Positions 4,806-50,714 of a stretch of 64,000 nt of DNA are shown here, piece after piece. The position numbers and the translations under genes are program-made. The notes under the pieces were generated by a model, which was not told the DNA's origin, made no database searches, and was given only the letters and a program-made list of their open reading frames with translations. How positions within the stretch are numbered: the stretch's first letter is position 1; each line of letters opens with the position of its first letter. This DNA comes from Macrostomum lignano (taxonomy: Eukaryota). Location: the NCBI GenBank assembly GCA_002269645.1, contig NIVC01000485.1, forward strand, positions 9,108-73,107. Direction: 5' to 3'.

Positions 4806-4852
<47 letters not shown>

Positions 4853-6141: not shown

Positions 6142-6173
<32 letters not shown>

Positions 6174-18030: not shown

Positions 18031-20723
18031 ATGCCGCCGGGTCAAAACGGCGGCCATGAGCACAGCACCGCCGCCCCTAACGGCGGCCATGAGCACAGCA
18101 CCGCCGCCCCTAACGGCGGCCATGAGCACAGCACCGCCGCCCCTAACGGCGGCCATGAGCACAGCACCGCCGCCCCAACGGTCATCGCCGACTAAAAAGC
18201 GACGCCGGGCCGCTCAATAATCGTCATCACAACCACGCATCGTCTACTGATAAGTCAGCCGCGGTGGCTCGAGCGCATTCGTTTGCGCCTGGACCTCGCG
18301 TCGTGCCTCGTCATCATCAGCACCATCAGCAGCAGAACCAACACGGAGCAGCTCTGGGCCATCGGCGAATGCACAGCTGCCCGCCGACTCCGCACCACAG
18401 CTGTTTCTTCCAGGCCTGGCCATCCTGCCTGGAGGCTTCAACACCGAGTCAATCGTTGACAATCGACAGGATCAGCATCAGCATGGCAACAGTCGAGCTC
18501 GAGACTACGAGTTGGCAGTCGGCGCCACCCAGCTAGAGACGCCAACAACTTCGGCTTCGGACGGAGACGATGTCGGAATTGTCAACGATGCTTCGGAGGC
18601 TACGACAACGACGACATCGACGGAGCCAGAGCTGGACCCGAAGCTCACCCAATGCGGCCTGTTCTGCTACCACCCTGCCTGTCTGCAGCCGCTCGCCCGC
18701 CCCCTGCCATTCCTTGTGTCCGTCATTGGCTTGTACTTTGTCCAAAGCTTCATAGTCAGCGGCTATATTAATAGCATCAATACTACTATTGAGCTGAGAT
18801 ACGGACTAACAACTAAAGAGATTGGCTACATATACGCGTCGTATGAAGTGTTCTGCATTGTGGCTACATTCTTCATATCGTATTTTGGTCACGGCGGCAA
18901 CAGATCCCGTCTATTGGGCATTGGCTGCGCAATCATTGGTATTGGATATTTTTTCTTTGCTTTTCCTCACTTCCTTGGCAGTGCCATTAGTAACACGGTG
19001 CCAGTGTCTGGTAATGCTTCCTCTTCTTCGACTGGCTCTTCTGCCTCCACGATTAGTAGCAGTGGAGTCAAGCTGTGCAGCGGGGGAGGCGGTGGCGGCA
19101 CTTCAGATATGAACTGTCAAGTGCAGGACTCAGCCTTGCTGATCCTATGCCTGAGCTTTGGTCTCATTGGCCTGGGCGCTAGCCCCGTGTACATCCTCGC
19201 CCCAACCTACCTGTGGGACAATGTACCTCAGAAGAGCTATCCTCTGTACGCGGCTTCGTTGCACATCACTAGCGCTCTTGGACCGGCTTGCGGCTTCCTA
19301 GGCGGCGCTGTGTTCCTGTCGTTGTACGTGAACTTTCCAAGCTCAGCGCCCGACGGTTTAACAACCAGCCATCCTCTATGGACGGGAGCCTGGTGGCTAG
19401 GATTCGTCATTTTCGCTGGTCTCGCTCTGCTGGTGGCTGTTCCTCTGCTGGCATTTCCAACTGTAATGCCGCACACTGCAGCGAAACGGTTGCAGAAGCA
19501 ACAACAGCAGCAGCAGCAGCAGCAGCAGCAAAAAGCGCAACGTTCAACGTCCTCTCTAGACGCCGACGAGTTGACGCGAAATTCTTCAACAACAAATAGC
19601 GACGCAGCGATTGTGTCTTCAACAAATGATGACGATGAAGAGCCTAACTCGTCTCTGGATCAGTCGGCAGCTTCTTTAAGTCCGGCTGAGAAGCCGCACA
19701 TTCGCGACATCCCAGCCGGTTTAAAGCGGCTGTTCAAAAACGCGTTATGGCTGTTTATCAGTCTGCTAATTGTGGCCGAGCAGTCTGTAGTACAAGCCTT
19801 CGTTGCTTACGTCAACAAGTACATGCAAAAGTCTTTTAATATCCCAGTGACGCAATCCAGCATCATCACAGGTTTGTGTCTTGATTTTTAAAATTCAATT
19901 CAGTGACTTCGTATATTTCGTTGACTAGCAGGTCCTTAAGTGTATATTTTGACAGATCCTTCAGTGTCCATCATGACACATCCTTCAGTGTCCCATCATG
20001 ACACATCCTTCAGTGTCCATCATGACACATCCTTCAGTGTCCCATCATGACACATCCTTCAGTGTCCCATCATGACACATCCTTCAGTGTCCCATCATGA
20101 CACATCCTTCAGTGTCCCATCATGACACATCCTTCAGTGTCCATCTCAACACATCCTTCAGTGTCCATCCCGACAGATCCTCGTTTAACTCCCATTCTGA
20201 CACCACCAGCTTCGGTTTAACAAACTTGCTCCCCCAAAACTACTACCAGGCGCTCTCGTCATTCCTAGCGCCGTGATTGGCATCGGCGCCGGGGCTTTAA
20301 TAATGCGCCGCTATAGGCCTAGCAACAAATCGGTGAGCCTACTCATGATGGGCCTGTGCGCCGCTACCACATTGCTCACTATTGGCCTGGCATTTTGCAC
20401 CTGTCCGAATGTCAGCATGGCGGGACTGAATGCTCAGTATGGCATCCCGGCTACTAGCGGTGCGGCAGCTTCATCATCAACAGCTGCTGCTCAGTTGCAG
20501 CTAAATGTGAGCTGCAATGCCGCCTGCCATTGCGGCAGTCTCAGCTACGATCCGGCTTGCGATGCTGTGAGTTTTTGTTCATTCTTCTGCTTTTGTGACA
20601 TACAAGCTATCTTCAGTTGCTTCTGGTTTCTTGTGGATCATTTCCACTTACTTTTCACTACTAGGTTTAATTTATGAGTGTAAGATGATCTTGAAAACTG
20701 TGATTGGTCAGTTCGTCAGTTAA

Positions 20724-20784
<61 letters not shown>

Positions 20785-20821
20785 CAGTTAGTTAGTTAGT
20801 TAGTCAGTTAGTTAGTTAGTC

Positions 20822-20876
<55 letters not shown>

Positions 20877-20941
20877 CAGTTAGTTAGTTAGTTAGTTAGT
20901 TAGTCAGTTAGTTAGTTAGTCAGTTAGTTAGTTAGTTAGTC

Positions 20942-27481: not shown

Positions 27482-27884
27482 TTATAATTCATTAGTTGTC
27501 CACGGGTGCACTAGGCTTCCAGATAAGTTTGCGCAGTCCAGAAACAGCGGCTGCACCTGCGGCTGCCGCTTCATCCTGAGCAGCACCGTGACGCCTGTGC
27601 CGAACCCGATGTCGCTCTTGTTCATGGCCAGAAACGAGCTGCTCCCATCGAACGCGGCGCCCTCCTCTGTCCACTGGACTCCGACCGGATAAATTCGGTT
27701 GGTCTCTTCGTCAGCCTGGCACACGACATTCTCAAATGCAGACATGTCGTCTCCGAGCCACACGTTTGTGAGCTTCGGGTTGAGCTGAGCCGGATATTTG
27801 ATCGGAAATCGGATGAGCACTCGGCAGTCGCTGCTCGCACCGCCAGAGACAAGGTCGCGACACACGGACTGGTAGCGGAAGAGA
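27482..27884 (-). CDS. Isolated exon, possibly ConA/laminin-G-like extracellular domain
   Basis: GC-rich open frame after a CAG acceptor (LFRYQSVCRD...AAFDGSSSFL...VTVLLRMK). The domain call is from pattern resemblance only, and no upstream exons were found. Confidence 0.4.
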
Positions 27885-27887
27885 CTG

Positions 27888-28310
27888 CACTACGTATCGC
27901 GCCATTAGAGCTGGGTTTTCAGAATTCTGACGCAAAAAACGCAAATTATACTACTATCTGAAAATGAAGTAAGTAGTATTCGAAAACGCTATCCTAAGCG
28001 TGATATATGGCAATATGTAGTCGTAATAATCCATGTGCTCATATATGTACATTAATCCCATGTACATTAATCCCTATCTATCTCAAATTGGATATGTACA
28101 TTAATCCTATGTACATTAATCCCTATCTATCTCAAATGTCCATGTCTATACCCAATTCTATATGTACGCAGTATGTGCATTAATCCACATGTATAGTGTC
28201 ATCCCCAGACGGCCCGCGCACACCAAAATTACAACTCGAAACCCTACTACATGTACAATCTCATCCAAATGAGTCAACTAATTGTACAGCTCACATCGTA
28301 TATAAACTAT
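27888..28310. mobile_element. Left ~420-bp inverted repeat beginning CACTAC
   Basis: cactacgtatcgcgcc (27888-27903) is the reverse complement of 49518-49533. An exact ~34-bp block (ttatactactatctgaaaatgaagtaagtagtat) and further blocks also match, with moderate divergence overall. Confidence 0.8.
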
Positions 28311-28706
28311 TTACAAAGAAGATATATTTACATTAAATCAGTAGCATATTACAGTAAATAATTTATGTACAACATTACCAGCGAATAGAATATACAGAAA
28401 ATTTTACATTGTTTTTCAATATTTTTCTCTTCATAAATGATTTTAAACAGGTCTGACACGCAAAATATGTACAATAGATTTTTACATTGGCAATTTCGCC
28501 GCATACAATACAAAAATGCTTTATGTACATTGAATTATGTACAACAAATAGATTTACTCTAATAAATTTGGCAATACTACAATGCAAAAATGCTTTATAT
28601 ACGGCTCGTACATTGACATGCAAATTATGTACAACAAATAGATTTTTTCTGATAAATTTAACAATACAACAATGTACATTGAATCGTCAGTTATAATTGG
28701 ATTACA

Positions 28707-31700
28707 TTATTTATAACCATAAGGCCTGCTGCCGGCCCCGTACACACGTTTTGTCAGGACGCGCTGAAACGTCTTGTCCATACTAACAGCGTGAATGGTA
28801 CAAGACGCCTTGTCGCGCCTGAACTGAAACTGCGGCAGCTGCAGAGAGCCACCGTGTAGCAGTGTGTTGCGCAGGTCGTCGCTACGCTCCCGTATCTCCG
28901 GAGTCAGGCGAATGCCCTTGCATTTCAAGACCTGGCTCCGGACACCGGCCGCATCCTCGACAATGTAAGTGTAGAGCTTGGGCCCTCCACTTACAAAGTC
29001 GGTCATCCGGCTGCCTGTGGGCACTTCGTCGGTCCACATTCCGAGGCTCGTGCCATGGGGCGGCTCCCATTGGCCCTCGGAATGCCGGTAAACGACCCTG
29101 TGTGGGGGGGAGAGAGAAAAACGAGATAATTGCTAACTATTTACATGTAATCAATTCTAAAAGAGCAATACTTACGAGTCAGTGTCGCAGTAAATGGCCC
29201 GTTCGCCGAGCCCCTCCAATGCCTCGTACAGGCGCAGCCGGGCCTGCGTGGTTGTAAAAACACCGATTGGCACGTTGGAGTAGCGGAACGGCCGCTGATT
29301 AAAGTAGCGGTGCCGGTACTCCAGCAGCATAAACTCGCTGCCAATCGGTTCGCAGGCCTTGACTTTGAGGTTGGGGTCGGTCAGCCGGGCGAGCCAGTCC
29401 TCGTAGCTGGATACAATTTCTGTCGATGTCAGGTCGTCACGCTGACAAAATTTACCCCAGAGCCTGCGTGTAAAGAAAAGCTACTGTTAGTAGAAGAAGA
29501 AATCGTTTAAAAATCAATTTATGAATACTTGCTAATTCAAAAAGATTTTCACTACAAAGCGAAGTCCTGGGTTGGGCTCGACCTTGTCCAGCGTGACGCC
29601 CTCCTTTGCGTAGAAATCGGCAATATAGGCGGCCTTGTCTTCATCTGACATGCCGGGGGAGCCGCTCGACTCAGCCTTCAATTTGAGGAAGGTGCTGACA
29701 TAGTCACATAGTCCAGTAGGCCAGCGCGTGCACCACCTGCAGCCGGTAGCCCAACTGGAAGGCCTTTCGCAGCTCCGGCGTGGCCCAGGTGCCAGTCAGC
29801 GCTCGCTCCTCGTCTGAGTGGTCGCAGCAGCCGCTGCACTGCTGCTCCATACAGGTGCGGCAAAGCCCAAAAAGAGCTTCTTTTGCACCCTGTAGGGCAG
29901 CAGCGGAATATGCAAATCTGACGGCGGCAGCACTGTCACTTTGGCAATGCCAAAGTAGCTGGCCAGCGCGTCAGAATCGAGCACTTGCGGCGTCGGGTGG
30001 TTCACCGGGTGGCCAATCGGGTACGGGTCTTTCGACTGCACCGTCGGGTACAGAGAGACCTGCCAGTTGAAATAAAACATTATTTTTCATAAACTGTATT
30101 TTTGCAAAATATTCTACTACATTAGTAGTATCACTACTCACCACATCCCGATATTTGAGAGTCTCAGTCTCGCTGGCCACAGCATGCGGGATAAAACACT
30201 CTACGCGGCCGCCGTAGAGCGCATCTTCCATCTTGAGCGGAGCGCGCAGATGTGCAGTTGCGGCAATGAAATCAGCCTGCGATGCCAATACAGTGTCGTA
30301 TTCGTGCTCCCAAATGACTCGAACACTGTAATTGTGCCGCTCCAACTCGCGAGTGAACCACTCAGTCTCGTGGCGGATATGGCTCAGAGGCTGCCGTTTG
30401 AGCGGGTGGACAACATCCTGATCGGGCATGCACTGCTCGCAGCCATGGTAGAAACAGCCATGAAACTGCAAGACAGTGTTGGTGGCCTCATCAAAGCCGT
30501 CCACCTTGCGGCCGAGAATGACCGCCTCACCGCCAGTCGAGTCGCAGGTTCGCAGCCGCCCACCAAATTCGGTGGCATTCAAATAGGCCAGCCACTTGCG
30601 CGCCTTGAATGACTGCTGGTCGGCCTGCCGGGCAATCACGCCGACCGAGTTGGGCTCCATAAATCGGGTGGTGAAAACGGCCATTGCCAAACTGGCAATC
30701 GTGTTGGCCTGTACAAATGGTTCCAGGCCGTCACAAATGTCTCCAATTATTGCCCTGTACTTGATGCAGCCCTCGCGAAGCAGCACCGTGTCGCTCAAAC
30801 AATAATCGAGATATTCCCGATTAAAGTTGAACAACTCGCCCTGTCGCGAGGCCAGCCAAGCACAGATGGAGCCGTAATCCTTGTTTGTCTTGCCGCCATA
30901 ATAATCAATAGTCGGGTAGGAGCCCACGTAGTTCCAATTAGCCGGCTTGTTGAACTCGTGGGGAAAGGTCCCCTTGGCCAGCTTTGTGTCGGCGAGCCCC
31001 AGAGCTTTGGGGAATTGCGCAAGCGGGATTGGTATAAAATTAAACGAATCTTTAAATACCAATTTATCAACCGTCATGCTCATTAGCCGGCTGCCCTGGA
31101 ACAGTACTTGGGGCCGCTTCTTGGCCAGGCCGTTGAGTAGAGCGCCAAGCAGTAAAAACGAATCGTAGCCTGATGCATTATGCGCGACAACAATGGCGCC
31201 GCCTCGGAATGTGGTGCTTAGCCAGGCGAAAAAAGCATTCAGCGAGGCCGGGCCCACAGCCACAAAATCGGCCATTTGGCAGGCGCAGTCTGAAGGGCTG
31301 ACGCAATTGGAGAATTCCTTCCCCAGATCGCGGCCAGTCAGACAATTGGCAGTGCTATGCAGGCCATTGCAGAGGCGGCAAGTCTCGCGCGGAAATGCCC
31401 GGCCGGAACAGGTCTCGCAACACGTGACGGCAGTCACCAGATGCACGTGATGCTGCTTCTCCTCATCCGTGTATGTTTCCGTATCGTAGAACACGTACGG
31501 CATAGTTGAAGCTTTCACTTTGGAAGCCTTGACGAAGCACAAATGCGAGCCGGCCTCGTCATACTGTTTACACAGTGGGCACTTGATGTGGCCGCACTTG
31601 TGTTCCGGCTCCTTCTGGCCGGGTTTTAGTTCTTCGCAATACCCGCAATTAGCGCAGACTCGGACAGAGTCGCAGCGCGACCGCCCAGCCCGGTTTTTCC

Positions 31701-32881
31701 GGCGGTGGTTGTCAAAACACTGCTGATTGTAACAATTCAATCCGCAGTCTGGGCAGCGCTTGTAGTCGCACCGCAGGCTCTTGCAATTGGCGCCGGGCGC
31801 TTTACACTGAGGGCAGGTGTTGGAGCACTTGTGTTCTCCAGACACGCAGTCGTACGGCTGCTGGCAGCGGTCGCAATAGCGACGGGCACCGAAAAATGGC
31901 GGCACCTTGCACACCGCGTTAGTGCTCGCCAATTAGGTGCAAATTCAGCACTGTGCTGCCTGGTAGGGCGTACACACATGTATTGCCCTCCTCGGCACTG
32001 TACACACGAACGCCGAAATCCCGGCCTGGTGACTGGGCGTTCAGGACAGCCAACAGTTGGGGGAGCATGTCAACCCCGAAAGGCCCGTCCTGTGCAATGG
32101 TTGATAAAGACTAAAACATTTGTATATTAATAAAAATGCAAATTAAAATGTGCAAGATTATTTTTTACTCACCGAATACAATTTAGCAGCAATCTGAAGC
32201 TCCCCAGTCAGCTTCTTCTGCATTGTGGAGTCGGCCTTGACGGTTTGCCATGTAGTCCTAGTAATGGCCTTGGCCTGCAGATCGGCGAAAGCCTTGGCCA
32301 CCACCAGCGCCCTGATGAGGCAACGTTTGTCGCTGTTGGCGATGACGACATAGCTGTTGCCCATAGCATGCCTGGCCTGAATATGCTTTTCCGCCGCATC
32401 TAGGCTGCCGCAGCCGCCCCGCGGAACCCAGGCCTTGAGCAAAAACAATTTAAAGTTGTTACCCAAGACGCTGGAGTCCGACTGCAGAACCTTGTTGATA
32501 TGTTTAAATATCAGCTCTGCAGTGAAGCGGCTGCGGCGGACGGGCGGGACATTGATGGCGAGCATCATATTGTCCGCCGTCAGCTTAGATGCGACGAAAT
32601 CATCTGCCCGCAGGTCCTCACAAAGTGTAGAAATTACTTCTGTGAATGTGGCGCGAATATCAGTGGTATCGGTGAATGATACCACATACTCATACCCTGC
32701 GGCTCTAAATTTAGGCAGGGCTTTCGCCCCGCCAAGATGCGCAATGAAGCCTGAAAAAATGAAGGGTTTTGAAATTAGAATTGCGAGAGGCGGCGGGTGT
32801 ATGACTCATGAAATAAAATCAACTCTTTACCATCGCCTTCGACAGTGTCGGGCTGGGGCGGGGGTTGAAATTGAGCCAAAT
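28707..32881 (-). pseudogene. polB: Polinton/Maverick-type protein-primed DNA polymerase B with >=5 introns; exons 32881-32831, 32750-32173, 32110-30142, 30059-29533, 29463-29176, 29097-28707
   Basis: Exonuclease motifs YDTETY, HNASGYD and YCLSD; internal nuclease-like KVDGF...QFHGCFYHGC; polymerase motifs YGGRVE, DV|VSLYP, KxxLN(S)|LWGKF, YCDTDS| and GPKLY. Introns of 62-82 nt restore these motifs. Lesions at ~31920, ~29880, ~29700 and 29533. Confidence 0.9.
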
Positions 32882-32893
32882 CTGCAATAAAAT

Positions 32894-35136
32894 GGGTCGT
32901 TCTCAAAGCTAGGTCACAACTTTTTGTTATTGCAAAAAAAGTTTATACATCGACCAAAAATCGTACAAAAAAAATTATTTCGACAATTTCTGTAAGAAGC
33001 TGCTACTAAAACCACAAGAAAACTTGAAATTGAGAAGAAATCAAGGCTATTTGTTATTCTTTGTTGCGGAAAATAAACGACAAAAATATTAAAGAGAAAA
33101 TAAAATTTTCTTCTATTTTTATTTTAAATATGCAGTTAAATTTCTTTTGCAAAAATAAAAGAACAAGAAATTGACAAAGGAAATGTTTTTGAGCACAGCA
33201 TTTTGTTACTCTGCTCTAAATCCCAGACATTTAAAATTATCGTGTGCGAAAAAGTGCGAAATTATTATAGCATGCACTCGAAAGGACTTCGATCAGTTTA
33301 ACTAATCACTGAATTAAGAAGTCTAAATAAGTCTTGAAAGGTTGAATTAAAAATCAAGTTTTCACTATGTATATTTTCAAAGTCAAGATGATTCGACAAA
33401 TAAAGAATGTTCATTTTTACGGTGAATAGAATTGTTCATTTTTACATTAAATATAATAAAATCTAACTAATAATAGAAAAAGTCAGGGAACTATCCTTGA
33501 ACACCAAAAAGCACATTGTGGATTTAATATCAACTGCATGTTCCTTAATAAAGGAATTCGGATTCTAGTATATATTTGATTATTTGTAGCATAATTTCTG
33601 AAAACTATAACTTGCTTGATTTTACTTTAAGTACTTATTACATTAATACTTATACCAAAGCTACATGTACTTAAAATAAAAAATTATAGTTACTTATTAG
33701 ACATTTTACTCCAATTAACTTGAAATAATTCAAATTTATTTTAATTAATTCATTTTTTGAAACTTTTTGGAAAATAGACAAAATTGAATTATTTAATTAC
33801 CAAAAACCTACTAGCTTAACTAAAATAGCAATTAGTCTTTAAGAAAAGAATTCACTTGTTAATTGAGAAAAATGAGGATGTGCGAGGTGTAAAAATGCGA
33901 AAGAGCATGCAGGAAACAGAGACAAACAAAAATGTAGGTAAAAGACACTGCACATGCACATAATATGATAACCAGACATAATGTCACGTTATTGGCGTAG
34001 CGGCCAGCTATGCGGTGACCCTTAAAAGGGCCGTTTTAGTCCCAAAATAAGTTGAAGTCAATTCTTGTAAAGCGGATTTTGTAGCGGAGCACTTGGCGAT
34101 AAAGGCAGGAACTGCCGTAGTTGTCTTTATTGTTAATATCAGTATTAAGCTTGGTTGTTACTGGCAATAAACAGACTATAGCTTTCTGGGCACTGGCGGC
34201 TGCAACAATGGGTTGAATATAATTTGGATATGAAGTCAAGTGGCAGGCGAATGACACAATGGCGACGTGACGTGAGCAGTGGCTATGAGCACAGTGAAGG
34301 CAGTGAAACGTAGTGGCGAGTTGGCGTCGGTCGTGGCGTGAAACAGTCAAGTAAGTGTGTGAGCAGGCTGGCCCAGACAGAAGGGCCGTGGTGAGAAATA
34401 AGGAGGCTCGAGGCAGCCAGACAAACAGATAAGACAGCTAAGAGGCCGCAGGGAAGGAAACAAGGAACAAGCGGGGAGTGCCGCCGCCAGGCGGGGGGGG
34501 TTTAATAAAAGAGCGCAGAGGGGGTAGCGCGAGCACGAGTGATTTCATTGGCTGGCGAGAGAACTTAAAATTATCGATCGTGCCAATTTTATACGGTTGC
34601 GAGAGAGGATAGCAAAATATACAATGAATTATAAATTGCCACAAAATCGTTGGGCACTACTACAAGTAAACGTCGCAATAAACGAATGGAAAAGTTTAGT
34701 TGAAACGGTGAAACTGAAGGGTTGAATGACTATGGAGAACAGCAGTCCAACGGCCCTTTTCGGGACCACCTTAAACTGACAACGTCACAATAATGCGCAC
34801 ACTGAAACACCAGTAGCAATGACGCCCAAGCTTTTGATGATCACAAGCGAAAAGGCAAAACCCAGCCATCAATCAAAGAAGTAGACTTTAGCACGCATCT
34901 TGAGTGCATCACGCATTTTTTGCAGAGAAGCTCGAAAATTAACATTGTATTCTGTGCACAACCACCAACTGCGACAGGGTCTGCCGGGGGATTTGTGGGC
35001 ACGCGGTCGCGGATACAAATCGGAGGAGTCGCTGACCATTCTGAAATTACTAGCTAGTACATGTAATTTTGTGTATTAATATATTTAGCCCGCTTTATTT
35101 CTATGCTCTCGTCCGCCTCTCGTTAATGCATCCCCA
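32894..35136. mobile_element. 2.24-kb dispersed repeat, copy 2
   Basis: Direct copy of 1150-3395; it begins ~10 nt upstream of the first recognisable polB splice acceptor. Confidence 0.8.
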
Positions 35137-38100
35137 GGACCCCAGACTCTTGCAATAATCAAACTTATGATCGAACTATGCATGGCTTCCGTCCCTCGCT
35201 TTGAATCTCTCACCTCCCCATAGTTCCATCAACCTTACCTTAGTGGCTTCCTATGCAAAAATCATCCCTCCGCATCTTACACAGGCTACTTCAGGCTGTA
35301 GACTGTACTACACTTTTACTTCAGTAATTAGTTGCGCTATAAGGAATCTACATGCATTTTGCTCGCAGCGCAGCGCGTTGCTCAAAGAAGTTTAGTTCTA
35401 TCTAGATATTCTAGTAATTTCATGTTTTTCGATAGACTAGAGCTCATGAGATGAGAATTCCATTAACTAGTACATTTAATATGAATGAACTGCGTGTGTG
35501 TGTGCTGTGCATACATATGTATAATATACGAGTAGTTTATGGGCCAAACTATTGTGTGGCACAATTCTTGGCATCACTCAGCAGGCACAAGATGCAGTTA
35601 AGCAGCGCACGAAAATTCTACAAAAGAAATTGAGCCTGGTTGAGGTGATGCGAGGAGGCAGATCCACACAATCTCAGTGAATACACCAGACTGCACCAGA
35701 TACGAGTCCAGTCGAATGAGTGCACTGGTCTAAGCAGCACACGCATGTCCTTCTGACAATGACGGCACCTAGCTTCGTCCAAGCCTTTGCCAGCGTCACT
35801 GACAGCGTTAATACTACCATGCAGTGCCACCTGCAGCACCGACAACGGCAATTCCTCCAGTTAGCCCACAACAGTGGCTAAACTGAGGGACAGGGAACCT
35901 ACCCACAGAAGACACACACATACACACACAGCACCGGCAGCAGCACTCTGACAGCATAACCTAAAGCTCCATGAGCTCAGTTTTCAAGCATTGAAGAAGC
36001 AGAAGCAGTCATCTTGGATCCAGGGATCAGGAAGAGTGTTGCATGTCCGACATGTGCTGTTTCCGTGGCAAAAGGTGATGGAGCAAATTAATCAACACTT
36101 ACTATCTAGCTCGTATTAAGACTAAAAAACTGAGGCAAGCAGGGATTAAACCAAAGAAAATTTTTTACTATACTTTTTTACCATACTTTTACTATACTTC
36201 TATAGTATAGTAGAGAGGTACTCTATTTAAATGCAGTAAGAAGTGAAACAAATTTATATATTTAATTATTAAATTAAATTAATTCAAGGTAAATAACTAA
36301 TTTAACCAATTTATTAGGAGTATTTATTATTATAATAAATTGATTTTTATACCTTACACGAAATAAGCTCTACATTCATTTCTTAGCTTGGGGCCCATCT
36401 GTATAAGGTCAGTTTCTTCAAAATGCTGATTAATTAATTAAGGCCTGTTGTCTTTACTTAAATTTATAAGGGCATCTTAGAAGTTAATATTACTATATAA
36501 TACATGTATAATAGTATTACTATATTATAATAATATAGTTGCAATTTTAATGACTATTAAATAAGTTTAAATGCTTCCCCTATTGACTCTAAATATATGG
36601 TATCTTTCCCTTCAGAAAAAATTAGCATAGAATGACTTGATGAAAACAAAAAAATCATTTAGAGATACACATTTGCTGATCATTCAGGTCAAATTTCAAG
36701 GTCCAGTTTTGCACATGTTTCTCTGTAGCTTGGTTACAAGGATTTTAATAAAAATATAATAAATATGTCCAATGAACTAACTGATACATAGCCAAATTGA
36801 AGTATTTTCAAAAACAAAAAAAATCTTTTGCTCAGTTTACTTTACTGGATATCTGTGTAAAATTTCAGCTCAAAAGGTGCTCCATGGAGAATGCTAGTGT
36901 GGTTACAGGATATTTATTTTGTGCTTCAAAGTAGGAGTTTATTGCGATGCATGGTTGCTTTTAATTATTTTTATCAACAATAGTGCTCTATTTCATAACA
37001 ATTTTTTACAAAAAGATAATAAGACATGTTTTTCTAATTATCTGCATCAAAATGTATCATTTTAAGCACGCATTCTAGACGTCAGCCGAAAAATACATTT
37101 TGTGAGACGCAAAGAGGCTATCCCACCGGAAATGCTAGGCGTACAGTTAAGCGTCTATAAAATCATTTGTAGTGCAGTTTATTGAGCTTTAAAAAATTCT
37201 TAAATTAAATTTATATAAGCTTTAATTTTAAATGTAATATAGCAAGGTTTCAACACAACAACAACTTTTTTTAGCTACAGACATCTTGTAGTATCAAAAA
37301 TTAACATCGGTGAAATGATTGAATTTGAATTTTTTCAACGCTAATTATCGCTTAATACCGCCAGATGATTAAAAACACTGTTGTATGATAAAGTTCAACC
37401 CAAAAATTATCTTTATTGACAGATAAAAGTGTCCTATTATTTTCAATATGGCAGTAATAATAGTAAATGTTTGGAAAATTGTTAAAATTTTTGCTCCTCC
37501 TAGAATTTGCGAACGACCCAAATGCGCATGGTGACTAAAATTCTGACCGCTTGGAATTTTACAACTGTCAAAAATTTTTTGATTGATTGCCTGCAGCAGC
37601 AGCAATTTTATCGCCCCACCCCAAGCAACAAAAATCGGCGAGTTGTAAAAACCCCAACTCGGCACGTTCCGACACGTAGCAACAAAAGAAATGTGGGGTT
37701 GATTGAACCCCGCTTCGAATTTTAGGCTGTCAAAAATGTTTGATTGATGACCCTGATAACACTGATCCTGCCGCAGCAGACATTGTAAAATTTAAGAAAA
37801 CCCCCTATCAGCACGTGCCTCCATTGTGCCCCCTTGACACCTAGCAACAATACCGCGCGGTCGCTTTTGGATTTTTAAAGCTGTCATAAATGTCTGATTA
37901 ATAACCCTCACTGTAGCAGCCAAGTTTTATTGCTTCCAAAACCCCTACAATTACCGGTACAGCGGTGATTACATCATCATGCCCAAAATCGGGGGTTGAT
38001 TTTATCACTGCCGCCAGAATACCGGCCTGCCCACCCCGCTGAGTCACGTTCGCGCTGCAGGATTGCTGTTTTTGCTTCTCTCTAGTTCAAGGATTAGTCA

Positions 38101-38496
38101 CATAACCCCTGAAATTTTATGACTATCCTCTACAGGCATTATCCGGCTATACTGCTGCTGCTGCGGATATTCTCTAAAACTCTGTTATTTCAACAGGCCT
38201 GAATTTGAGAAATCCAGTTCCTCCCTTTACTTCAACATCTATGTCAAGAGGAAATTCAGAAATTTTAAGTCAAAATGAATGTTAAAGATGAAAAGCAGCT
38301 GTGGTTTCAAAGAAAGCCCATATTTCAACTAGCGAAAAAATTTGCAAATCACACAAATGCTAAAGCAATTATACAGCCCTATTTTTCTGAATTCAGATTT
38401 TGCAAATGCTAAAAGCATAGTTTTACACACGCAGAGACTCACCCAGCGGGCGTCCCCTCTTTGCGGCCGGAGGCTGATGCTGTTGTTGCTGTTGCT

Positions 38497-40362
38497 TCTT
38501 CTTCTTCTTCTTCTTCGTCTTCAGCGCTCGCTTTACCGGCGCGGCGGCGCCGAGATTTGCGGGGGCCATCGCCCCATGCTCCGAAGGAGCGAGAGACATT
38601 TTCCCGGGTTCCGGAGGAGCTCCTCGTGATCGTTCCCGACCAGGGCCATCCGTCGAGCGTCTCCCCGGTGGCAGTGAAGTAGCGCATGGGCGCTGTCGTC
38701 GAGTTCTCCGCAGTCCGGGCACTGCGGATTATCGATCATACCGAATCGGTGCTGGGTCTCGGCGCAGAGCATCGTCATGCCTGCGCGAAGCTGGCACACC
38801 GCCGTTTGCTCCCGCCGGTCTCTCGCTTTGAAGTCCGGCCAGGGTTGCGGCAGGGTTTCTTTCTCCAGGGTCCGGCGATCGCGGCGAATGGCTGCTTTTG
38901 CGGCGTTGAAGGAGATGGGCACTTCCTCTTGGGGCAAGCCTCTTGCCATGCCGGCCGCGCGGTCCGCCGCTTCATTAAGGCTGATGCCGCAGTGGGCTGG
39001 CACCCAGATTAGTTCTATGTCGGCCGTTTCGTTGATGTCTAGCATGTGGCGCCAGCAGTCCGTACCGGTCTTAGTCGCCTGGGCTAGTGGTCCGGCCCCT
39101 AGTGCTGTCAGTGACGATAAAGAGTCGCTACATAGGCGAATCTTCTTTTCGCTCGGGCTGCGGTTGTTCTTAATAAAAACCAGTGCTTCGCGGATGGCTA
39201 TCATTTCTGCGTCAAATGAGCTACAGATGATTCCGGCCGGGGCCTTGCGCACATGGCTCGCCAAGTTCGTGCAGGTTATAGCGGCGCTGCCGCCGGGTCC
39301 GGTGCCGTCCGCCACCGATCCGTCTGTCCACACGCTGATGTCAGCCTCAGGCAGTGACTGCAGAAACTCCGTTGCCGCCGCGCTCCGGGACTCCTGGGGG
39401 TCCGTGCGGCGGCATCGGGCCGAGATGTCCAGGCGGATGTTAATGTCCCGTGTGTCGCACTCCCACGGCGGGATGCCGGGGCTTACCGGGTCGCCTCTTT
39501 TGTGGGAATCCAATATGGCAACCGACGGCAGCTCCAGTGCCGCCCTCCTCCAGCAGTTCCGGAAGGGGCGGGTGGCGTCCCGCGGGTCGATGAGGTTCAG
39601 CGAGTTCGGCTGTGCTTCGTCGTCGGCGCCGCCGTCTCCGTGGGTGCGGCCGTGATCGCGTGCCAAAGCTTCGTAGGTACGGTTTTTCAGTCTAGGCCTG
39701 GTGTTCCGCAAGGCTACTTGTCCCGCCGAGACACTCGGGTCGAGTCTGAGGACTCTTTCCCTTAGGCGTGCCGCCCTCTCGGACGCGATGAATGAGAGCG
39801 GTGTGAGCCCGGCCAGTTGTAGGACTGAGCGGATGTTGGTCGGCATGATACATCCCGTAATCAGTCTCGCGCACGCGTTCTGCTGCTGTTCAATAGCTCG
39901 TCTGGTGGAGGGGGCGGCGCCGCATAGCCAGGTACCTGCGGCGTACTCGGCCACAGCGCGGACGGTACTGATGTAGGCTGTTCGGATCGTTTGTAGATCA
40001 GCTCCGGTGCTCCTGCCGGCCATCGCTGCGAGCGGTCGGCGTCTGGCGCACATCTTGGCGCGGACTGTCGCGGCGTGCTGCGCGAAATTGAGTTGACCGT
40101 CTAGGCGAACACCGAGGTAGTTCGGGGCTGGGTCAAAGGCTATTGGCTTGTCATCGATGAGCAGGTTGAGTCTCTTTTTGCCGTTTGATTCCTTTGCGTC
40201 CAGCGTGAAAGTGCCGTACACGCTCTTTTCCACGCTGAGCTCCACTTTCCATTCCTTGCACCACTGTGAGACGGCGTTCAGCGCGGGTTGCAGCTTCTCT
40301 TCACATGTGTCCAGAGACCTGTTAGAGGTCAGGAGGGCGCTGTCATCGGCATAAAGACGATA
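38497..40362 (-). mobile_element. 5'-truncated RNase-H-bearing LINE A (I-group/Ingi-like)
   Basis: Runs from LYADD through RNase H (WTDGS, WVPAHCG, NEAADRAA) and a CCHC-like motif to a (GAA)n tail. 10-bp TSD TGCTGTTGCT at 38487-38496 and 40363-40372. Confidence 0.9.
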
Positions 40363-40388
40363 TGCTGTTGCTGCTGCTGCTGCTGTTG

Positions 40389-43300
40389 TTGTTGTTGTTG
40401 TTTTGGTGGTACGCGCCCAGGCAGAGCTAAGGGCAGTGTCTGGCCAGCGCTATCAACCCGAGGGGGTCGGCGGAAATGCTGCTGATGTCTGTCGTGGGTC
40501 CTCCAAGAAGGCGGAGCCTGGTGCCAGCGAGAGCTGGGCAGTCAAGCCAGTGTTCCAGGTCATCGCAGGGATGGCCGCAGCGGTGACATGCCGGGTCGAC
40601 GGCCGGGTCGACAATGCTGCGATACGCGTTGAAAAGAGTGCAGTGACCTGAGCGTAAGCGCGCAAGAAGCACCGCATCGGCACGGTTGGTGATGGAGTCC
40701 TCTTCCAATTGACGGTTGAGAAGCCGGTACGCGTGCCGGGTGCGCTCGTGGCGTATCGGGGGATCGAGGACGGATCTTCTGATGACGTTTTTGGCGCTGT
40801 GGATGCTGATCTGACTAGCGGGAGACACGAGCGTGGTGGCCTCTTTGGCTGCTTGGTCGGCCAGCTCGTTGCCAGGAATATTCTGGTGGCCCGGAACCCA
40901 CTGCCAGGTGATTTCGGCAGATGCAGTAGGTAGTGCAGATCTGATTCTGGGGTTGCCGCTGGCCAGAGCGCGGAGCATAGATTGGCTGTCGGAGCAGATG
41001 TTGGTAGCCGCGGTGAGAGCAGCTTGGTTGATCCAGCCGATGGCGAGAGAGGCGACGCGAAGCTCCTCTTCGAACGAGGATGTGGAGGGCGCGCCGCGCT
41101 GTTGAAGAGTCGCCAGGATGATAGGGTGGGCTGGGTCACCGGTCGTGACGATGGCTGAGGCGCCGCCATTGGTCGTGCCGCCTGATGCCGAGCCGTCGCA
41201 GTAGATGGTGATCAGGCCTGGGAGGTGGCGGATAGTGTCGATGGCCGTGGCTGTGCGCGCGGGACCGGGTTCCGGCAACGCCATGTCGACACGCACGTCG
41301 GTAGAGAAAGGGTCCCAAGGCGGCGGACGAGCAGTGCAGATCATGGCGCGCGGCGTGACCGAGCTAGCTATGAGTGGCAGCAGGTCGGTGACGTGGTTCC
41401 GCCAACTGTTCCTGCGTAGCCTGTGCGCTGTGTTACCAGTGGCGGCAATGCGGCACGGGTGAGAATCCGGGAGGCGCTGAGCTCTTTCGAAGGCCGTCAG
41501 GCATATAACATTGCTACCAGTGCGGACGGAGCAGATGCCAGCTTCCAGCCTAAGGGCCTCAACCGGTGTCGTGCGGTGTTGTCCTGTGACAATACGAAGA
41601 GCTGCGTTCTGCGCTCTCTCCAGCTGTTGAAACGCGGATTCAGAGAGCCAAGGGTGCCAGGCCGGCGCTGCTAAGTTAATGATGCTAAGTTGCATGGCAC
41701 GGTAAATGCGGATCAGGAGTTTTTTGGACCAACCCCATTCCTTGGAGGCCAGGCAGGCGAGGAGACGGCAACGGGAAGTGGTCCGATTGCACACGTGCTC
41801 CAGATGGCTGCGGAAACTCAGAGTGCGGTCCAGTGTGAGGCCCAGCAGCCGAGGCGTTGGATTGTGCCGCAGGTTCCGGCCTTCGATAGAGATAGCCGGG
41901 GACCAGGCGGCTTCGCTGGTGTCCGTGGAGAAAAAGGCGGCCTCGCTTTTGTCTGGGTTTAGGACCATTTTGTGCTCATTGCTCCAGCGGGCCACGTTGT
42001 CGAGTGCTCTTTGCACAGCGCGTTGAGCCTCTAGCTTGTTGCGGTGGCGGGCGCGGAGGGCGATGTCGTCGGCATACATGGAGATCTCTGCCGGCGGGTT
42101 GACCACGTCATTGACCGTGTCAATGAAAATAAGGAAGAGAAACGGAGCGATGACCGATCCTTGCGGGAGGCCCTGGCGCATGATAACCGGTGAGCTGCGA
42201 GGACCGTGGAGTTGCACGCGGGCAATGCGATGGTGCAGAAAGGCCGCAGTCCATTTTATAAAGACAAGAGGGACGCGTTTGCGTGCCATAACGGTGATGA
42301 GGCGCTCACGCCACACTTGTCAAGGCTTTACAGAAATCAAGCAGAGCAATGATCGTGCGTTCAGATGGTTTGAGGTTCATCCCGTCGCTGATGTCTTGGG
42401 TGACTCTCAGGAGCTGATCCTCGCAGGAGTAGTTGGCCCGAAACCCCGCCTGGTTCGGGGAGATCCAGCCGTGGCGCTCAGCCAGGTGGTGCAATCTAGT
42501 GACCAGGATGCGCTCGAGCAGCTTGACAATACAGGATGTGAGGCTGATGGGGCGAAAGGCCGCGATGTCCCGAGCTGACTTTCCAGCCTTGAGCAGGGGA
42601 ATAATAATCGCGGTGCGCCAGGATTGAGCGACGGCCGCGTGCTGGAAGGACCAGTTGAAGAGACTAAGCAGCTCTGCGCGGGCGAGCGGGCCAAGGGCCT
42701 TAATGAACCGAGGCGTGACCTCGTCGGCGCCAGCAGCGCCGTTAGCACGCTGGTGTTGTATGGCGGAGTCCAGTTCCTGCTCGGTGATGGCGGCGTATCC
42801 GTCGTGGGTCGAACCTGGGAGCGGAAGGGGAAGCCGAAGGATGGCTTTGGCTTCTCGGATAGTAGCGCGATCCGAATGGGAAATGTGGTACCTGCTGACA
42901 GAGGCGTACTGCTTGGCAAAGGCGTTGGCTTTGTCTCTAGGGTCTGTTAACACTTTGTTGCCGACCTGGAGGGCCTCATTAGGGCAGTTGGAGTCCGGAG
43001 TGCCGTTAAGGCTGCGGATGAACTTCCACGCCTTGTTCGAGTTGGGCTCTTTCTCAAGATCGGTTATCGTGTCACGCCAAGCAGCCTCTTTCGTTGCCCT
43101 GGCAATTTTGTGAACGTTGGCGCAGGCGCTGAGCCAATCTTCTCTATTCTCGCCAACGGAGCGCCTGAGGCGGTTACGGAGCTTAATCGCCGCTTTGAGT
43201 TCAGGGGTGAGCCAGGGACGCGGTCTGTGCGAGGTACGGACTTTGCCGATGCAAAGGTTTGCCGCTTGCATGACTATATCATTAAAACGTTTGGCTCTGG

Positions 43301-43684
43301 CGTCAAAGGTAAGATGCTCTTTGTGAAGGGCTTTAAATTTGTCCTCGACGACCGTTTGGAAAGCATTCCAGTCGACCCCTTGTTTGCGCCATATGAGACG
43401 GCTTTGGGCCTTAGGCAAGGTCCTAACCTTGAGGTCAAGGCGGATCACAATCGGCGTGTGATCACTGCCGAGGTCATCGGAGACTTGCCAGGTGCATTTG
43501 CTAGCCAGCTTTGAGGAGGCGAAGGACACATCCGTTGAGCTTTCGCCACCTGTGGCTTTATTGACTCTGGTGGGCGAGCCGTCGTTAAGGATTTCCAGTT
43601 GCGAGTCGATGGACCAGTCCAGGAGCGTGGAGCCTCGTTCGTCCTGGGGCTGTATAGGGTCCCAGGCCGGAGAGTGCTCTGTGC
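40389..43684 (-). mobile_element. 5'-truncated RNase-H-bearing LINE B (I-group/Ingi-like)
   Basis: APE C-terminal half (NDGSPT...GSDH), RT (FRPISL, GLPQGS, YADD), RNase H (YCDGS, WVPGH) and a zinc finger, ending in a (CAA)n tail. ~20-bp TSD (TGC)5TGTTG at 40369-40388 and 43685-43704. 1-nt frameshift near 42325. Confidence 0.92.
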
Positions 43685-44042
43685 TGCTGCTGCTGCTGCT
43701 GTTGTGAGGGGCCTGCTCGCCCCCACAAGGCTGAAATTGCTGCTTCAGCGGCCGAACGTTTTGATGCCATGCTTCTGCTGCTGCTGCTGTGCTACTGCGA
43801 TTGCGGCTGATGCTGCTGTGATTGCGACTGTGACTGCTGATGCTTGCGGTTTCTGATGCTGCTGCCGTTTGCTGATGTTGTGACTTCTGCTGTTGTTGCT
43901 TCTTCTGCTGCTAGCTGTGCTGATGCTGCTGCTGTGTTGCCGCTGTTGCAGGCTGATGCTGTTGAAGCAGTTGATGCTGCTGTTGTGGCTTCTGCTGCTG
44001 CTGGCTGCTTTTGCTGATGCTGCAGCAGCAGCTCTCACCCGC

Positions 44043-44050
44043 TTTATATA
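44043..44050 (-). promoter_or_regulatory. TATA box upstream of the polyQ/AT-hook exon
   Basis: Minus strand GGG-TATATAAA-GCGGG, followed by a CAG-rich leader and the ATG at 43770. Confidence 0.55.
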
Positions 44051-45352: not shown

Positions 45353-46965
45353 GGGATAGCTACGTTTGCCTGCGGGACGTTTGCCAGCCGACGTTTGCCT
45401 GCGAGACGTTTGCCAGCCGACATTTGCCAGCCGACGTTTGCCAGCCGACGTTTGCCAGTGGGACGTTTGCCAGCCGAAGTTTGCCTGCCGGACGTTTGCC
45501 AGCCGACGTTTGCCTGCGAGACGTTTGCCAGCCGACATTTGCCAGCCGACGTTTGCCAGCCGACGTTTGCCAGCGGGACGTTTGCCAGCCGAAGTTTGCC
45601 TGCCGGACGTTTGCCAGCCGACGTTTGCCTGCCGGAAGTTTGCCAGCCAAAATTTGCTAGCCAATATAAAGCCAGTCAGTGAAAAATTTGATACTGAAAC
45701 ATTCGCAGTTTAGCGGTTTGACAAAAACCGTTTTTACTCCAACTTTTTGACGGTTATTCGCATGTATACAAGTTTGAAAGCAAAATATATAAATTAATGC
45801 AGTTCATCAGTCTAACGTCTAATATCTAGTTTAACAACGATTTTGGCACAACATATCAAAAGATGAACATTGGGTTTGCCTCGTATGAAAGCAATAACAA
45901 TTGTTGTGCTGAAAAGATGAAAACTTCCTATCTCCCTATGGCCTTGAAAACATTTTTCATAGATTTCGAGTGCTGCGTACTTCTACTTTAGTAGTCCTTG
46001 GCATGACTAAGCTTTGCATACGTAGTGTCTAGCGCTTGCTATTCTACTAGCTTGCTACTGGCGGCTTGTCTGGCTATTCAGCTATATAGCTTACTATAAA
46101 AACGTACCGCATTCGACTCGTCTACACATGTACGTTGAGATCGCGGTTTCCTTGCTTACTTGAGTAGTAATACAACAGAATTGGAATCAATTTGCTTACT
46201 TTTAGATCTCCCAATGAACTGAGAAATATATGAGCCAGAATTACCGCTCAGCAGCTCTTTTTGTTTGCCTCATAACTTAATCGCTGGAGATTCCCGTTGT
46301 AATCTGCGCGTCTTCTTTCGCACATCAAAAATCAAACATCTCAAACTGGGAAAAACGATACACAATTGTCAAAAGTAAACAATATTTTAACATTCAAAGA
46401 AAATCGTTGTTAAACTGGATATTAGATGTAAATCTATATAAATTGCATAATATATAAATTGCATAATGCATAATTGCATAATTTATATAGATTTTGCATA
46501 AATTTCATAATTTATAGATTTTGCTTTCAAACTTGTATATATGCAAATAACCGTCAAAAAGTTGGAGTAAAAACGGTTTTTGTCAAACCGCTAAACTGCG
46601 AATGTTTCAGTATCAAATTTTTCACTAACTGGCTTTATATTGGCTAGCAAATTTTGGCTGGCAAACTTCCGGCAGGCAAACGTCGGCTGGCAAACGTCGG
46701 CTGGCAAACGTCCGGCAGGCAAACGTCGGCTGGCAAATGTCGGCTGGCAAATGTCGGCTGGCAAATGTCGGCTGGCAAACGTCGGCTGGCAAACGTCGGC
46801 TGGCAAACGTCCCGCAGGCAAACGTCCGGCAGGCAAACTTCGGCTGGCAAACGTCCCGCTGGCAAACGTCGGCTGGCAAACGTCGGCTGGCAAATGTCGG
46901 CTGGCAAACGTCCCGCAGGCAAACGTCGGCTGGCAAACGTCCCGCAGGCAAACGTCGTAGACCCC
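45353..46965. mobile_element. Foldback/MITE with ~500-bp inverted arms built of ~15-bp gacgtttgccagcc repeats
   Basis: 45353-~45850 is mirrored by ~46400-46965; GGG...CCC ends; no coding capacity. Confidence 0.85.
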
Positions 46966-47841
46966 TGTGACCCTTTGCATTTTGCGCCTTTTTGAGCCAG
47001 CCGATGCCCAGGTCTAGTATCCTATCTGCAACCATAGGCATTTCCGCTAGCTCATGTAAGAATTTAGTTTGCGTGTAACTGGGAGCACCATAGCATAATC
47101 TCAGGGCTAGATTTTGGGTTTGTTGGAGTTTGGTGATGCTGTCATTTCTGAGTACTTGGAGAATTGGTGCCCCATAGGTCATGGTGCTCTCAACATATGC
47201 TCTGTAGAGCATTTTTAGTGTCTCACTGCTGAGTTTAGTAAGTTTGGAGATTCGATGGATTGACATAACAAGTGCCCTGCATTTGGTGATTACAGCCTCA
47301 CAGTGGGGTTTCAGGGTGAGTTTATAGTCAAGGTTGATGCCCAGAAATTTCACTTCTTTTTGGTAGATTAAGGACGCGTCACCTAGTTTCAGTTCTGGCC
47401 TAATGTCCCTTCTAGTCGGGTTCGCTGGGGCATAGGAAAAAACTATGGCTTGACTTTTGCTAGCGTTTATTTTGATACCTTGTTCTCCGCACCAGGCCCA
47501 AAGGCTGTTTAGGTAGGGTTGAACTACATTTCGGAGTTCTCCGAAGGACTTGGCAGATGCCCAGATGGCCATGTCATCTGCAAATTGACTTTTCCTAATG
47601 TTTGGATGACCCGTATGGGGCATTGTGCTAATGAAGAGCAGGTACAAGAAGGGGCTGAGTATACCTCCCTGGGGAACGCCTGCCATAATTTGAAACGAGT
47701 CACTGAGGATGTTGTTAACTTTGACCCGAAAACTCCTGTTCTCAAGGTAGTTGGAGCAGATCCTGGTGATGGCTGTTGGCAAGTCTATCTGGAACATTCT
47801 ATACCTAATATAGTTGTGGACCATCGTGTCAAAGGTTGTGC
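46966..47841 (-). mobile_element. Non-LTR retrotransposon RT fragment (LINE C)
   Basis: GVPQGGILSP, QFADD and KFLGINLD motifs; the frame is cut by the MITE. Confidence 0.88.
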
Positions 47842-49144
47842 GGGATTCATTCCTGCTTCGAAGCCGTCTAAGGTCAAGTTAAAAACGACATTTGGACACA
47901 TTAGCTGTTGAAATTATGGTTTCCAGTGATGAAACTACTGATTTTGATCAACAAAGTCTGCATTTTAACGTAAAAATGCATAAAAAATGGTGAAAAATTG
48001 TATTTTCTTATGAAAAAATGCACATTTCTAGTCATTTAGCTTTCAAAATAACCAAATTTCTTGTTTGAAATTCCAACTTTACTTTGTATGGAGAGGTCAG
48101 TGCATGATTCATTCCTGCTTCTAACAGATTAAACCGACCGTCTCAAAGACCAAGTCTGAAAGCTTCAAGTGAGAAGGCATGGGGAGGCGGAGAGGTAGAA
48201 TTGAATATTTAAATATGTGGACTTCACTACTTCTAGTATAACGCAAGGGTGACTTATACAATTTACAAAGTTTAGAATCAAGTAAATCAGAATTGCATGC
48301 GGTGATTCATAGGCTGTGTACATTTACAAATGCAGCTGGGGTTTGTCAATGCAGGTAGAGGTAGAGGTTGGCGGACTCGGATTTGTTCAGATTCTTGGGG
48401 TTGATGTGTGCATTAAAAGTTGGTTTCTTGCTAACTGCTTCTATAGGGGTATGGATGACGTAATCGGAGAAGAGAGGGGTTTTGCTGAATGAAGTTTAAT
48501 ATAGGGTCTGTGCTGTGGAAAGATCTGTCTGTACACTGAAAATGGAGAGAGGGTCGAAATTCCTTGGCATTTAGAAGGGGAGAGAGAGAACAGGGGCGAG
48601 TGTTAAAATTTAGCTCGATTTGCTAGGGTCTGCGCTGTGAAGACGAGTCTGGTGAACATCGGAGGGGTGGCTGTTTTCGAACAGTCTTGGGTTGAATTTT
48701 GACTATGGTCCGAGTTAAAGGGTGATTCAAAATTTAGTATAGGAGCTTCGAGGGGTGAGGATATACCGTACAGCAGTAGCAGTTGATAATTACCAATTAA
48801 AGGTCTTGTATCATCCGCACTGTCAATATAGAATTATAAAGCACTGCTTCAACACAGTCCTGCATTTGGGGTCTGACTTGGGGAGAGGCTTGGATGACGC
48901 AACCCCCACCCCATCGCTTGGCGAGAGTTTGTACAGGCCCGCCTCTATATGATAGTATGTGTATTTTATAAGTGATTTTGAATAAATTATCAGCATATTC
49001 AAACCTACAGTCTCCGAGGGTGAAAATGTACATACCTAATTTTTGGGGTATGTGGCGGATATGAGTATAGAGGCTATCGATGTACATATAGACTCCGACC
49101 AGTATTATTCAAATCTGTCTGAGAAATGTACATTGGAAATATAC

Positions 49145-49533
49145 ATTTACGTTGTGAGGTACACAATTAGTTGACTCATTTGGTAGTAGTAGATGAGATT
49201 GTACAACTGTACATGTAGTAGGGTATCGAGTTGTAATTTTGGTGTGCGCGCGGGCCGTCTGGGGATGACACTGTACATGTAGATTAATGCACATACTGCG
49301 TACATATAGAATTGGGGATAGACATGGACAATTGAGATAGATAGGGATTAATGTACATGGGATTAATGTACATATATGAGTACATGGATTAATACGACTA
49401 CATATTGCCATGTATATCACGCTTAGGATACCGTTTTCATATACTACTTACTTCATTTTCAGATAGTAGTATAATTTGCTTTTTTTGCGTCAAAACATCT
49501 GAAAATCAACCGTTAAAGGCGCGATACGTAGTG
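49145..49533. mobile_element. Right inverted repeat ending GTAGTG
   Basis: Reverse-complement match to 27888-28310. Confidence 0.8.
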
Positions 49534-50714
49534 TCACGGCCCCCCAGATACACATTTAGGTCACGGCCCCAGAGATACAAATTTAGGTCACGGCCCCCCA
49601 GATACAGATTTAGGTCATGGCCCTAGATACTTATAGCCCAGGTGTAATCAAGAGTTTTTTACATGTAGTCGATAAATTAAATATTCACTAACCAACTAAT
49701 CTTGCTAGCTATCTTATTGCCTGGAAACTAATAAATTTCATTGTTTTTACTGTCACATTTCAATTGATAAAAATTTTACTAAGTTATCCTGCAATTTCTG
49801 CGATGATGCTGTCTATATAGTCACAGCTTTGCTATTGTTATACTGTAATTATTTTTGTGGCACTATTAAAAAAACTACTTTTTTACTACAAGTACGAGTA
49901 GCATAGATAAATGCATTAGCATAAATATAGTATCAAACAAAACTACACGTGTATTGTTATTAATTTCATACCTACAATATTTCGCTATTTCTACTGTAAG
50001 TAAAGCATTAGGGAAATACTAAGGTATAGAAATTGTAGTTGCATCGCTTAATTTTTTAAAATAAAGTAAAATAAAGATAGGAGCACACAAGCGTTGCAAA
50101 GTGAAATATATATATATAGTGTAGGCAACACCTGAAGTAAAAATCAACAATGAGAAAACTATAAATAAATAAATTTATTTGGGTTAATTAATCAACTACT
50201 ACAGGTTAAAACTCCTTAAATCAGCAAAATAATCACAACACAGCAACACTGTTGATTAATTCTATGCAAATTACTATATAATATTCTCTTTTACCAATCG
50301 GCAAAATAAAATATTGGTAAAATACGTTTCATACTACTCAGTTTATAACTATGTGTAAAAGAACAAGTAAAATTGGGCGACATATAATAGATTTAGTAGT
50401 TCTAAAATAGAAAGGTGGTAAAAACGAAGACCAGAAAATAACTGTAAAATGTAGCAATGTTACACTACTTACTAATTACTGTATATACTACTTCCAAGCA
50501 TCAGGAAAATGAGTAGTACAATGTCGGAGATTTAGGCGCGTAAAACTGCGACAGCAACAGCAAAACAGGCAAGTCAAAAAGTTTTTACACCTTTTTAAAA
50601 CGGCATTCGATTTTAAAATGTAATAGAAATGAGATGACAACCAACTCTTAGAAAGTGGCAACTAGATGCAAGAAAACAGAATTTATTTTTTGAGAATATA
50701 GCGCATATTTCAAA

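Follow-up and report, generated by a model that had tools for sequence, protein, structure and literature searches.

To which gene does a short exon belong when two retrotransposons have split it, what might its peptide do, and what kind of element carries it? These questions are raised by a stretch of 64,000 nt from the flatworm Macrostomum lignano (assembly GCA_002269645.1, contig NIVC01000485.1, positions 9,108 to 73,107; hereafter the window), which holds such an exon on the same strand as a gene for a Polinton-type protein-primed DNA polymerase B (polB). A preliminary description of the window had proposed that the exon is spliced directly to polB and encodes an AT-hook. We put at roughly 0.7 the probability that a Polinton polB gene begins with this exon 1, spliced to the rest and likely encoding a nuclear-import tail, and that the surrounding ~10-kb element likely represents the replicase half of a two-segment Polinton.

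On the minus strand, a TATA box (TATATAAA, 44043..44050, beginning at 44050) lies 280 nt upstream of an ATG at 43770, close to the ~270 nt given in the preliminary description. The 5′ coding part of exon 1 (43682..43770, minus strand; MASKRS...GPS-Q7) consists of 22 codons, MASKRSAAEAAISALWGRAGPS, containing the first basic cluster, and a CAG run (Q7), after which LINE A (long interspersed element A) begins. The 3′ part (38443..38494, minus strand) comprises 17 codons, QHQPPAAKRGRPL, which include the second basic cluster and end in KRGRPL, plus one G; it is followed by the donor G|GTGAGT in phase 1 with its GT at 38442, as had been described. The two LINEs that were said to split one exon do lie in tandem in its CAG tract, and the two parts are contiguous, with no interruption, in natural copies (8 of the 20 loci examined). 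Because of this contiguity and the 47 matches of the 5′ part across the genome, exon 1 is not a chance frame. Its Q-rich tract varies in length among natural copies, and the joined Q count of the window copy, given as Q11 in the preliminary description, is ambiguous since the borders of the duplications inside the CAG/CAA run are ambiguous.

On the polB side, exon 2 (32831..32881, minus strand) is 51 nt long with phase 1 in and phase 1 out; its phase-1 acceptor at 32881 is where the first visible polB exon had been placed. The region from exon 3 to the stop codon (28707..32750, minus strand) contains several short GT-AG introns and encodes the PF03175 polymerase (E 1.7 × 10−15; 25-30% to animal Polinton polBs). 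Intron 1 spans 5561 nt in the window, made up of the genuine intron (37520..38442, minus strand, with a remainder at 32882-32893) and a 4.6-kb insertion. The donor pattern G|GTGAGT was found in all 23 matched exon 1 copies in the fetched stretches. Downstream on the same stretch, the polB acceptor follows in 15 of these 23, at 694-1240 nt in 13 of them; the other eight stretches end too early or are rearranged.

Assembled contigs from several sequencing runs (X), taken as RNA, add evidence for splicing. On the natural copy L022, exons 1 and 2 are joined in two contigs of run X4, which skip 1177 nt bounded by GT..AG (8555 to 9733 on that locus, where it reads CT..AC), and one contig of X2 departs from L022 at the same exon 2 acceptor. 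The joint between exons 2 and 3 is present in contigs of X1 and X2, and four further polB introns are skipped in contigs of X1, X5 and X7. For the splice, the checks that the preliminary description had named came out in its favour: LINE-free copies lead from an intact exon 1 to the polB acceptor, and probable-RNA contigs of one run join the two across GT..AG, on copies other than the window's. The direct splice to 32881 that it proposed agrees with both the natural-copy spacing of 0.7-1.2 kb and the contig joint. It had also pointed to 35140-38440 as a place for intermediate exons; none is there, as 35140-37519 belongs to the insertion and the joint skips the remainder in one step.

This spliced polB occurs in two families. 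Exon 3 has 129 genome matches in two tiers, family A (about 74-87%, plus the window) and family B (about 50-60%). Exon 1 of family B has 20 codons, MAKRSAxxxxFLADKRQR(L/F)Y, followed by the phase-1 donor G|GTAAGT, in 11 of 11 copies; a TATA box lies 61-81 nt upstream of the ATG, and exons 2 and 3 are at the same places as in family A. Families A and B, with 54-72% identity between their polB pieces, thus have the same in-phase succession of TATA box, exon 1, intron, exon 2 and exon 3, and the family B layout independently supports exon 1 as the first exon of polB. Three UniRef models of near-identical polB start inside intron 1 and have no methionine, an annotation that the spliced first exon corrects. 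The E2B region of adenoviruses, which takes its start codon from a short spliced upstream exon, offers a likeness. Together, these results support exon 1 as the spliced first exon of the Polinton protein-primed polB, with transcription and splicing supported for the family, subject to caveats taken up below. The window copy itself is broken: the LINEs split its exon 1, and comparison with a sister copy reveals frame-disrupting indels near 31.9, 29.9 and 29.7 kb.

Sister copies place the bounds of the surrounding element at 27889 and 49532, about 9.5 kb once insertions are subtracted. Its terminal inverted repeats (TIRs), at the polB 3′ end (27889..28316) and at the promoter end (49131..49532), both have the terminus ACTACG, and termini sort by family (ACTACG in A, ACTACT in B). 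Target duplications of 6 bp flank family A elements exactly in 15 of 18 cases, with one mismatch in another and swapped in two; in family B they were found in 17 of 18, and in 3/3 and 2/2 in further sets. A CACTA transposon, suggested by ends that read C+ACTACG, was rejected, as the leading C is part of the 6-bp target duplication. The window hexamers (left, 27883..27888; right, 49533..49538, within a 30-nt minisatellite) are swapped with those of contig C3173 (G000:C3173; L027, L028), where the twin of the left hexamer flanks an element, and both products are in the assembly. At 7 of 8 loci, the unoccupied left-flank site runs on into the sequence of the C3173 flank; the remaining locus is the window itself. 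The window element is thus the product of a reciprocal exchange between two insertions, which explains its unlike ends.

Polintons are defined by a polymerase and an integrase in one element. A panel of integrase, major capsid protein (MCP) and ATPase matched nothing in seven polB elements. Family B and many family A polB elements, the window's not among them, carry a divergent gene tentatively labelled PC4-like (Pfam E 0.19; Atlas 0.91, recognition below threshold), a lead only. Ahead of the polymerase exonuclease, Cys and His motifs were seen by eye in a region whose single-sequence structural model was poor (predicted local distance difference test, pLDDT, 47). As separate observations, clustered inverted, nested and head-to-head polB fragments on contigs C471 and C157 (L034, L037-L039) resemble integrated aberrant replication products, and a distant polB in short pieces on C234 (L105:9214 to L106:976), about 30% to the window's, is possibly a third spliced family.

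The missing genes turned up on a second kind of element. A search with the terminal motifs (63 matches for B, 92 for A) led to elements of ~10 kb that have these ends and carry an rve integrase gene (PF00665, E 2 × 10−9). Their MCP model (pLDDT 64) matches the double-jelly-roll capsids of PBCV-1, iridovirus and mavirus, with a best E of 2 × 10−14. ATPase, protease-like and penton-like open reading frames (ORFs) were assigned by motif or weak matches, and three further ORFs have no assignment; a short ORF at both ends of family B capsid elements lies in the TIR and was left uncounted as a gene. A panel of 11 polB proteins matched nothing in seven capsid elements except for a stray piece of intron 1. 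The MCP falls into two tiers that sort with the ends, ~86% with A ends and ~99% with B ends. Data sets other than this genome contain MCP proteins that are 80-81% identical. An IMG/VR search returned no MCP relatives, and a Pox_A32 family search was uninformative, giving no genome match though ATPase genes are present. A Fic-domain gene (L133:9122-9901; PF02661, E 7 × 10−14) occurs on family B capsid elements and was undetected on family A ones.

Within each family, the stretch shared by the two kinds of element is the terminal ~31 nt, beyond which they diverge. Inside this shared end, nt 12-30 form a hypervariable patch in both families that is identical at both ends of one element; its variants are common to different segment types and even to different families. 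In addition, capsid elements of family A match polB elements of family B over their nt 28-50. Elements free of large insertions measure 9.4-10.8 kb each, ~20 kb per pair.

We then asked how the genes are distributed among 53 end-paired elements of the two families: 15 carry polB, 8 the capsid gene, 30 neither and none both, and single ends agree. Family A accounts for 30 end pairs (10 polB, 6 MCP, 14 neither) and family B for 23 (5 polB, 2 MCP, 16 neither). In one family A element there is a polB fragment of 52 residues that belongs to the B tier. The closest polB and MCP on the same contig are 50 kb apart (105 × 62 positions). Family age runs in parallel across segment types: capsid elements of B stand at 98.6-99.4% and its polB elements at 94-97%, those of A at 94.5-99.4% and 85-93%. 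As a control, metagenomic relatives of the MCP have polB beside it in 18 of 27 long loci; another 7 of the 27 either stop no more than 1 kb from the ATPase or match only via a fused ATPase, and 2 have no match. The MCP also lies beside polB in complete Polintons of the same genome.

Those elements with neither gene that were retrieved turned out to be, for the most part, large palindromes made from a single arm. Those at L099, L100, L159, L160, L167, L168 and L131-L146 are near-perfect, 6.6-9.5 kb long and mostly non-coding, with family ends and 6-bp duplications, and palindromes outnumber coding elements among the end-paired copies. They are likely snap-back defectives riding on both segment types.

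For a two-segment Polinton, the following mechanism can be proposed. The polymerase precursor (terminal protein, vOTU, exonuclease and palm) would enter the nucleus by means of the basic clusters of exon 1. Priming at the ends that the segments have in common, polB would then replicate any linear DNA with those family ends, hence both segment types, with palindromes arising as snap-back by-products. The integrase of the partner would insert both kinds of segment, leaving the 6-bp duplications, and the capsid may package the segments separately; to judge from their equal sizes, packaging may be limited to near 10 kb. More tentatively, and with somewhat less than an even chance, the gene content might represent a segmented double-jelly-roll virus with a double-stranded DNA genome, in which a replicase segment with a spliced polB and an integrase/capsid segment of the same size are packaged and integrated independently of each other, in two families and accompanied by snap-back defectives.

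The main rival, which we consider unlikely, is that each kind of element depends on complete Polintons, or on a joined parent not seen, and not on the other kind, both being independent deletion derivatives or satellites. The genome does hold several unrelated families of complete Polintons, which have an intronless polB as well as MCP, ATPase and integrase (G000:C506, C114, C211, C67, C2285, C781, C273), the non-coding palindromes show that ends alone suffice for copying and insertion, and genome searches give lower bounds. However, the four complete Polintons whose ends were read have AGTAG..CTACT, as against ACTAC..GTAGT in the polB and capsid elements, and their polBs give no significant match; for both reasons complete Polintons were rejected as direct parents. 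Moreover, the gene sets are complementary and non-overlapping in both families, and age matches across the segment types. One capsid/integrase element also carries a 370-nt piece of polB intron 1 (L152:3042-3410), a sign of exchange between segment types that the satellite explanation does not favour.

With respect to the peptide, two features of exon 1 are constant in both families, a KR pair (KRS/P) near the start and KRxR before the donor. A classical bipartite nuclear localization signal consists of KR, 10-12 residues and then three K/R out of five, and the clusters of family B are 10 residues apart (KR-x10-KRQRL). To judge from the sequence, the basic clusters are likely a nuclear-import signal. 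Alternatively, exon 1 could supply only a start codon and an expression-enhancing intron, its peptide having no targeting role. The linker does vary freely in length and sequence, and a Pfam search with three natural exon 1 peptides of 20-41 aa found no family, AT_hook included, at E≤10, although HMMER filters can drop short motifs. Both basic clusters nevertheless persist across two families whose elements are ~65% identical in nucleotides, and we hold this alternative to be improbable.

Far less probable is the AT-hook of the preliminary description, through which, on that view, polB could bind the minor groove of AT-rich terminal repeats. The HMGA-type AT-hook has an RGRP core with K/R on both sides. 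The window and five other copies do read K-RGRP, a likeness confined to the core. Before the donor, the 23 matched copies have KRGRQL in 16, KRGRPL in 6 (the window included) and a stop in one, four further copies read KRRQL, and family B has KRQRL or KRQRF in 11 of 11, with neither RGRP nor a glutamine run. The proline is thus present in 6 of 23, the window core is followed by L and, in the spliced phase, by D instead of K/R, and the Pfam AT_hook family gave no match. As for the repeats, 'AT-rich' does not fully describe them, the shared terminal ~31 nt being mixed in composition. Finally, a separate lost gene such as a transposase, which the 5.5 kb between exon 1 and polB in the window might suggest, has a negligible probability, as 4.6 kb of that gap is a single insertion, in 13 copies the distance from the exon to the polB acceptor, within the same TIRs, is 0.7-1.2 kb, and the direct joint was seen.

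Several points weigh against the reading of exon 1 as a polB import tail on one half of a two-segment Polinton. The exon 1-2 joint occurs in one of four runs, the other three having none; it has only 25 nt on its short side, aligned at 80% likeness, and comes from copies other than the window's. The X runs were taken as RNA by guess, none being recorded as such; they were available as contigs, and X1-X4 are one study. A separate comparison of polB introns, in which exon 1 was masked, does not list the joint. The basic clusters of family A are ~30 residues apart with a Q-rich spacer, longer than the classical 10-12, and the import reading rests on that consensus. Assignment of the polB N-terminal region to a terminal protein and vOTU is tentative, made by eye and from the literature with a poor model, and the partner ATPase and protease matched Pfam only below threshold. 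As to the division of genes, genome matches are lower bounds (95 of 448 MCP candidates and 91 of 974 polB candidates were scored), and the terminal patterns were exact-match only, so that a joined element may have escaped detection. Help in trans could also come from complete Polintons of other families in the genome.

The window copy has been altered by several insertions. LINE A (40385..43681, minus strand, borders approximate) is truncated, with endonuclease, reverse transcriptase (RT) and RNase H domains by Pfam, a frameshift near 42.3 kb and a (CAA)n tail. LINE B (38495..40362, minus strand, borders approximate), which directly follows it and shares about 25% amino-acid identity with it, is 5′-truncated, with RT, RNase H and a (GAA)n tail. 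Across copies, the CAG tract has at least eight different interruptions, with RT or endonuclease homology at five loci (25-55% identical to the window LINEs). The best explanation is that the tract is an unconstrained linker that collects non-LTR (long terminal repeat) retrotransposon insertions, two of which broke the window copy. The 4.6-kb DNA-transposon-like insertion (32894..37519) in the polypyrimidine tract of intron 1 has GGGTCGTTC inverted ends (GGG..CCC) and an AT-rich 4-bp ATTT duplication, and is missing from the other mapped copies; 2.2 kb of this insertion recurs at 1150-3395 of the window, 99.8% identical. A further insertion in the promoter arm (45358..47837), with 14-15-nt tandem-repeat ends and an RT fragment, is absent from sister copies.

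Outside the element, the left flank (27482-27889) is a high-copy repeat with 41 matches, at 97-100%, of which many lie together on a small number of contigs, and holds a 135-codon open frame with no Pfam family. A large near-perfect inverted duplication at 4773-10210 and 15680-20897 contains a transporter-like gene (OATP by eye) and surrounds a gypsy-like fragment.

In comparison with known systems, the elements share with Polintons, Mavericks and adintoviruses a PF03175 polB with a long N-terminal region, an rve integrase, a double-jelly-roll MCP, an ATPase and a protease-like gene; TIRs some hundred nt long and target duplications of 6 bp are also common to them (PMC10748475, PMC8502044, 10.1101/2024.03.18.585575). 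According to 10.1101/2024.03.18.585575, a terminal-protein domain opens the Polinton polB and a vOTU protease comes next. Polintons/Mavericks are given a length of 13-25 kb in PMC10748475; here, by contrast, the core genes are split over two TIR elements of ~10 kb. The polB element also differs in lacking integrase, capsid, ATPase and protease, and in a polB spliced to a short first exon; the complete Polintons of the same genome (n=4) differ in their ends. Basic import signals are also present on the terminal proteins of the protein-primed phages phi29, PRD1, Bam35 and Cp-1, which prime and cap linear genomes and carry nuclear localization signals according to PMC4974454; here the predicted signal would instead form the N-terminal tail of a precursor in which terminal protein and polymerase are fused.

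The nearest precedent for a two-segment organization is the bidnaviruses. In Bombyx mori bidensovirus, the termini of the two segments match, and only one of the segments carries the polB, which derives from Polintons (PMC4061559, PMC8502044). Common termini and a polymerase on one segment are alike in both systems. By the same sources, bidnaviruses have single-stranded DNA and a parvovirus-type capsid on the polymerase segment, whereas here a double-jelly-roll capsid is on the other segment with the integrase, and both segments integrate. Full-text literature searches, with Repbase and subscription journals outside their scope, turned up neither a two-segment Polinton nor any Polinton of Macrostomum.

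If true, a stable split of this kind would illustrate, from nature, how a DNA genome comes to be segmented, parallel to the bidnaviruses, and 'incomplete' Polintons would be halves, not debris. It would also make two matters testable in a laboratory flatworm: whether Polintons form particles, and which end sequence, with about 31 nt shared, polB and the integrase need.

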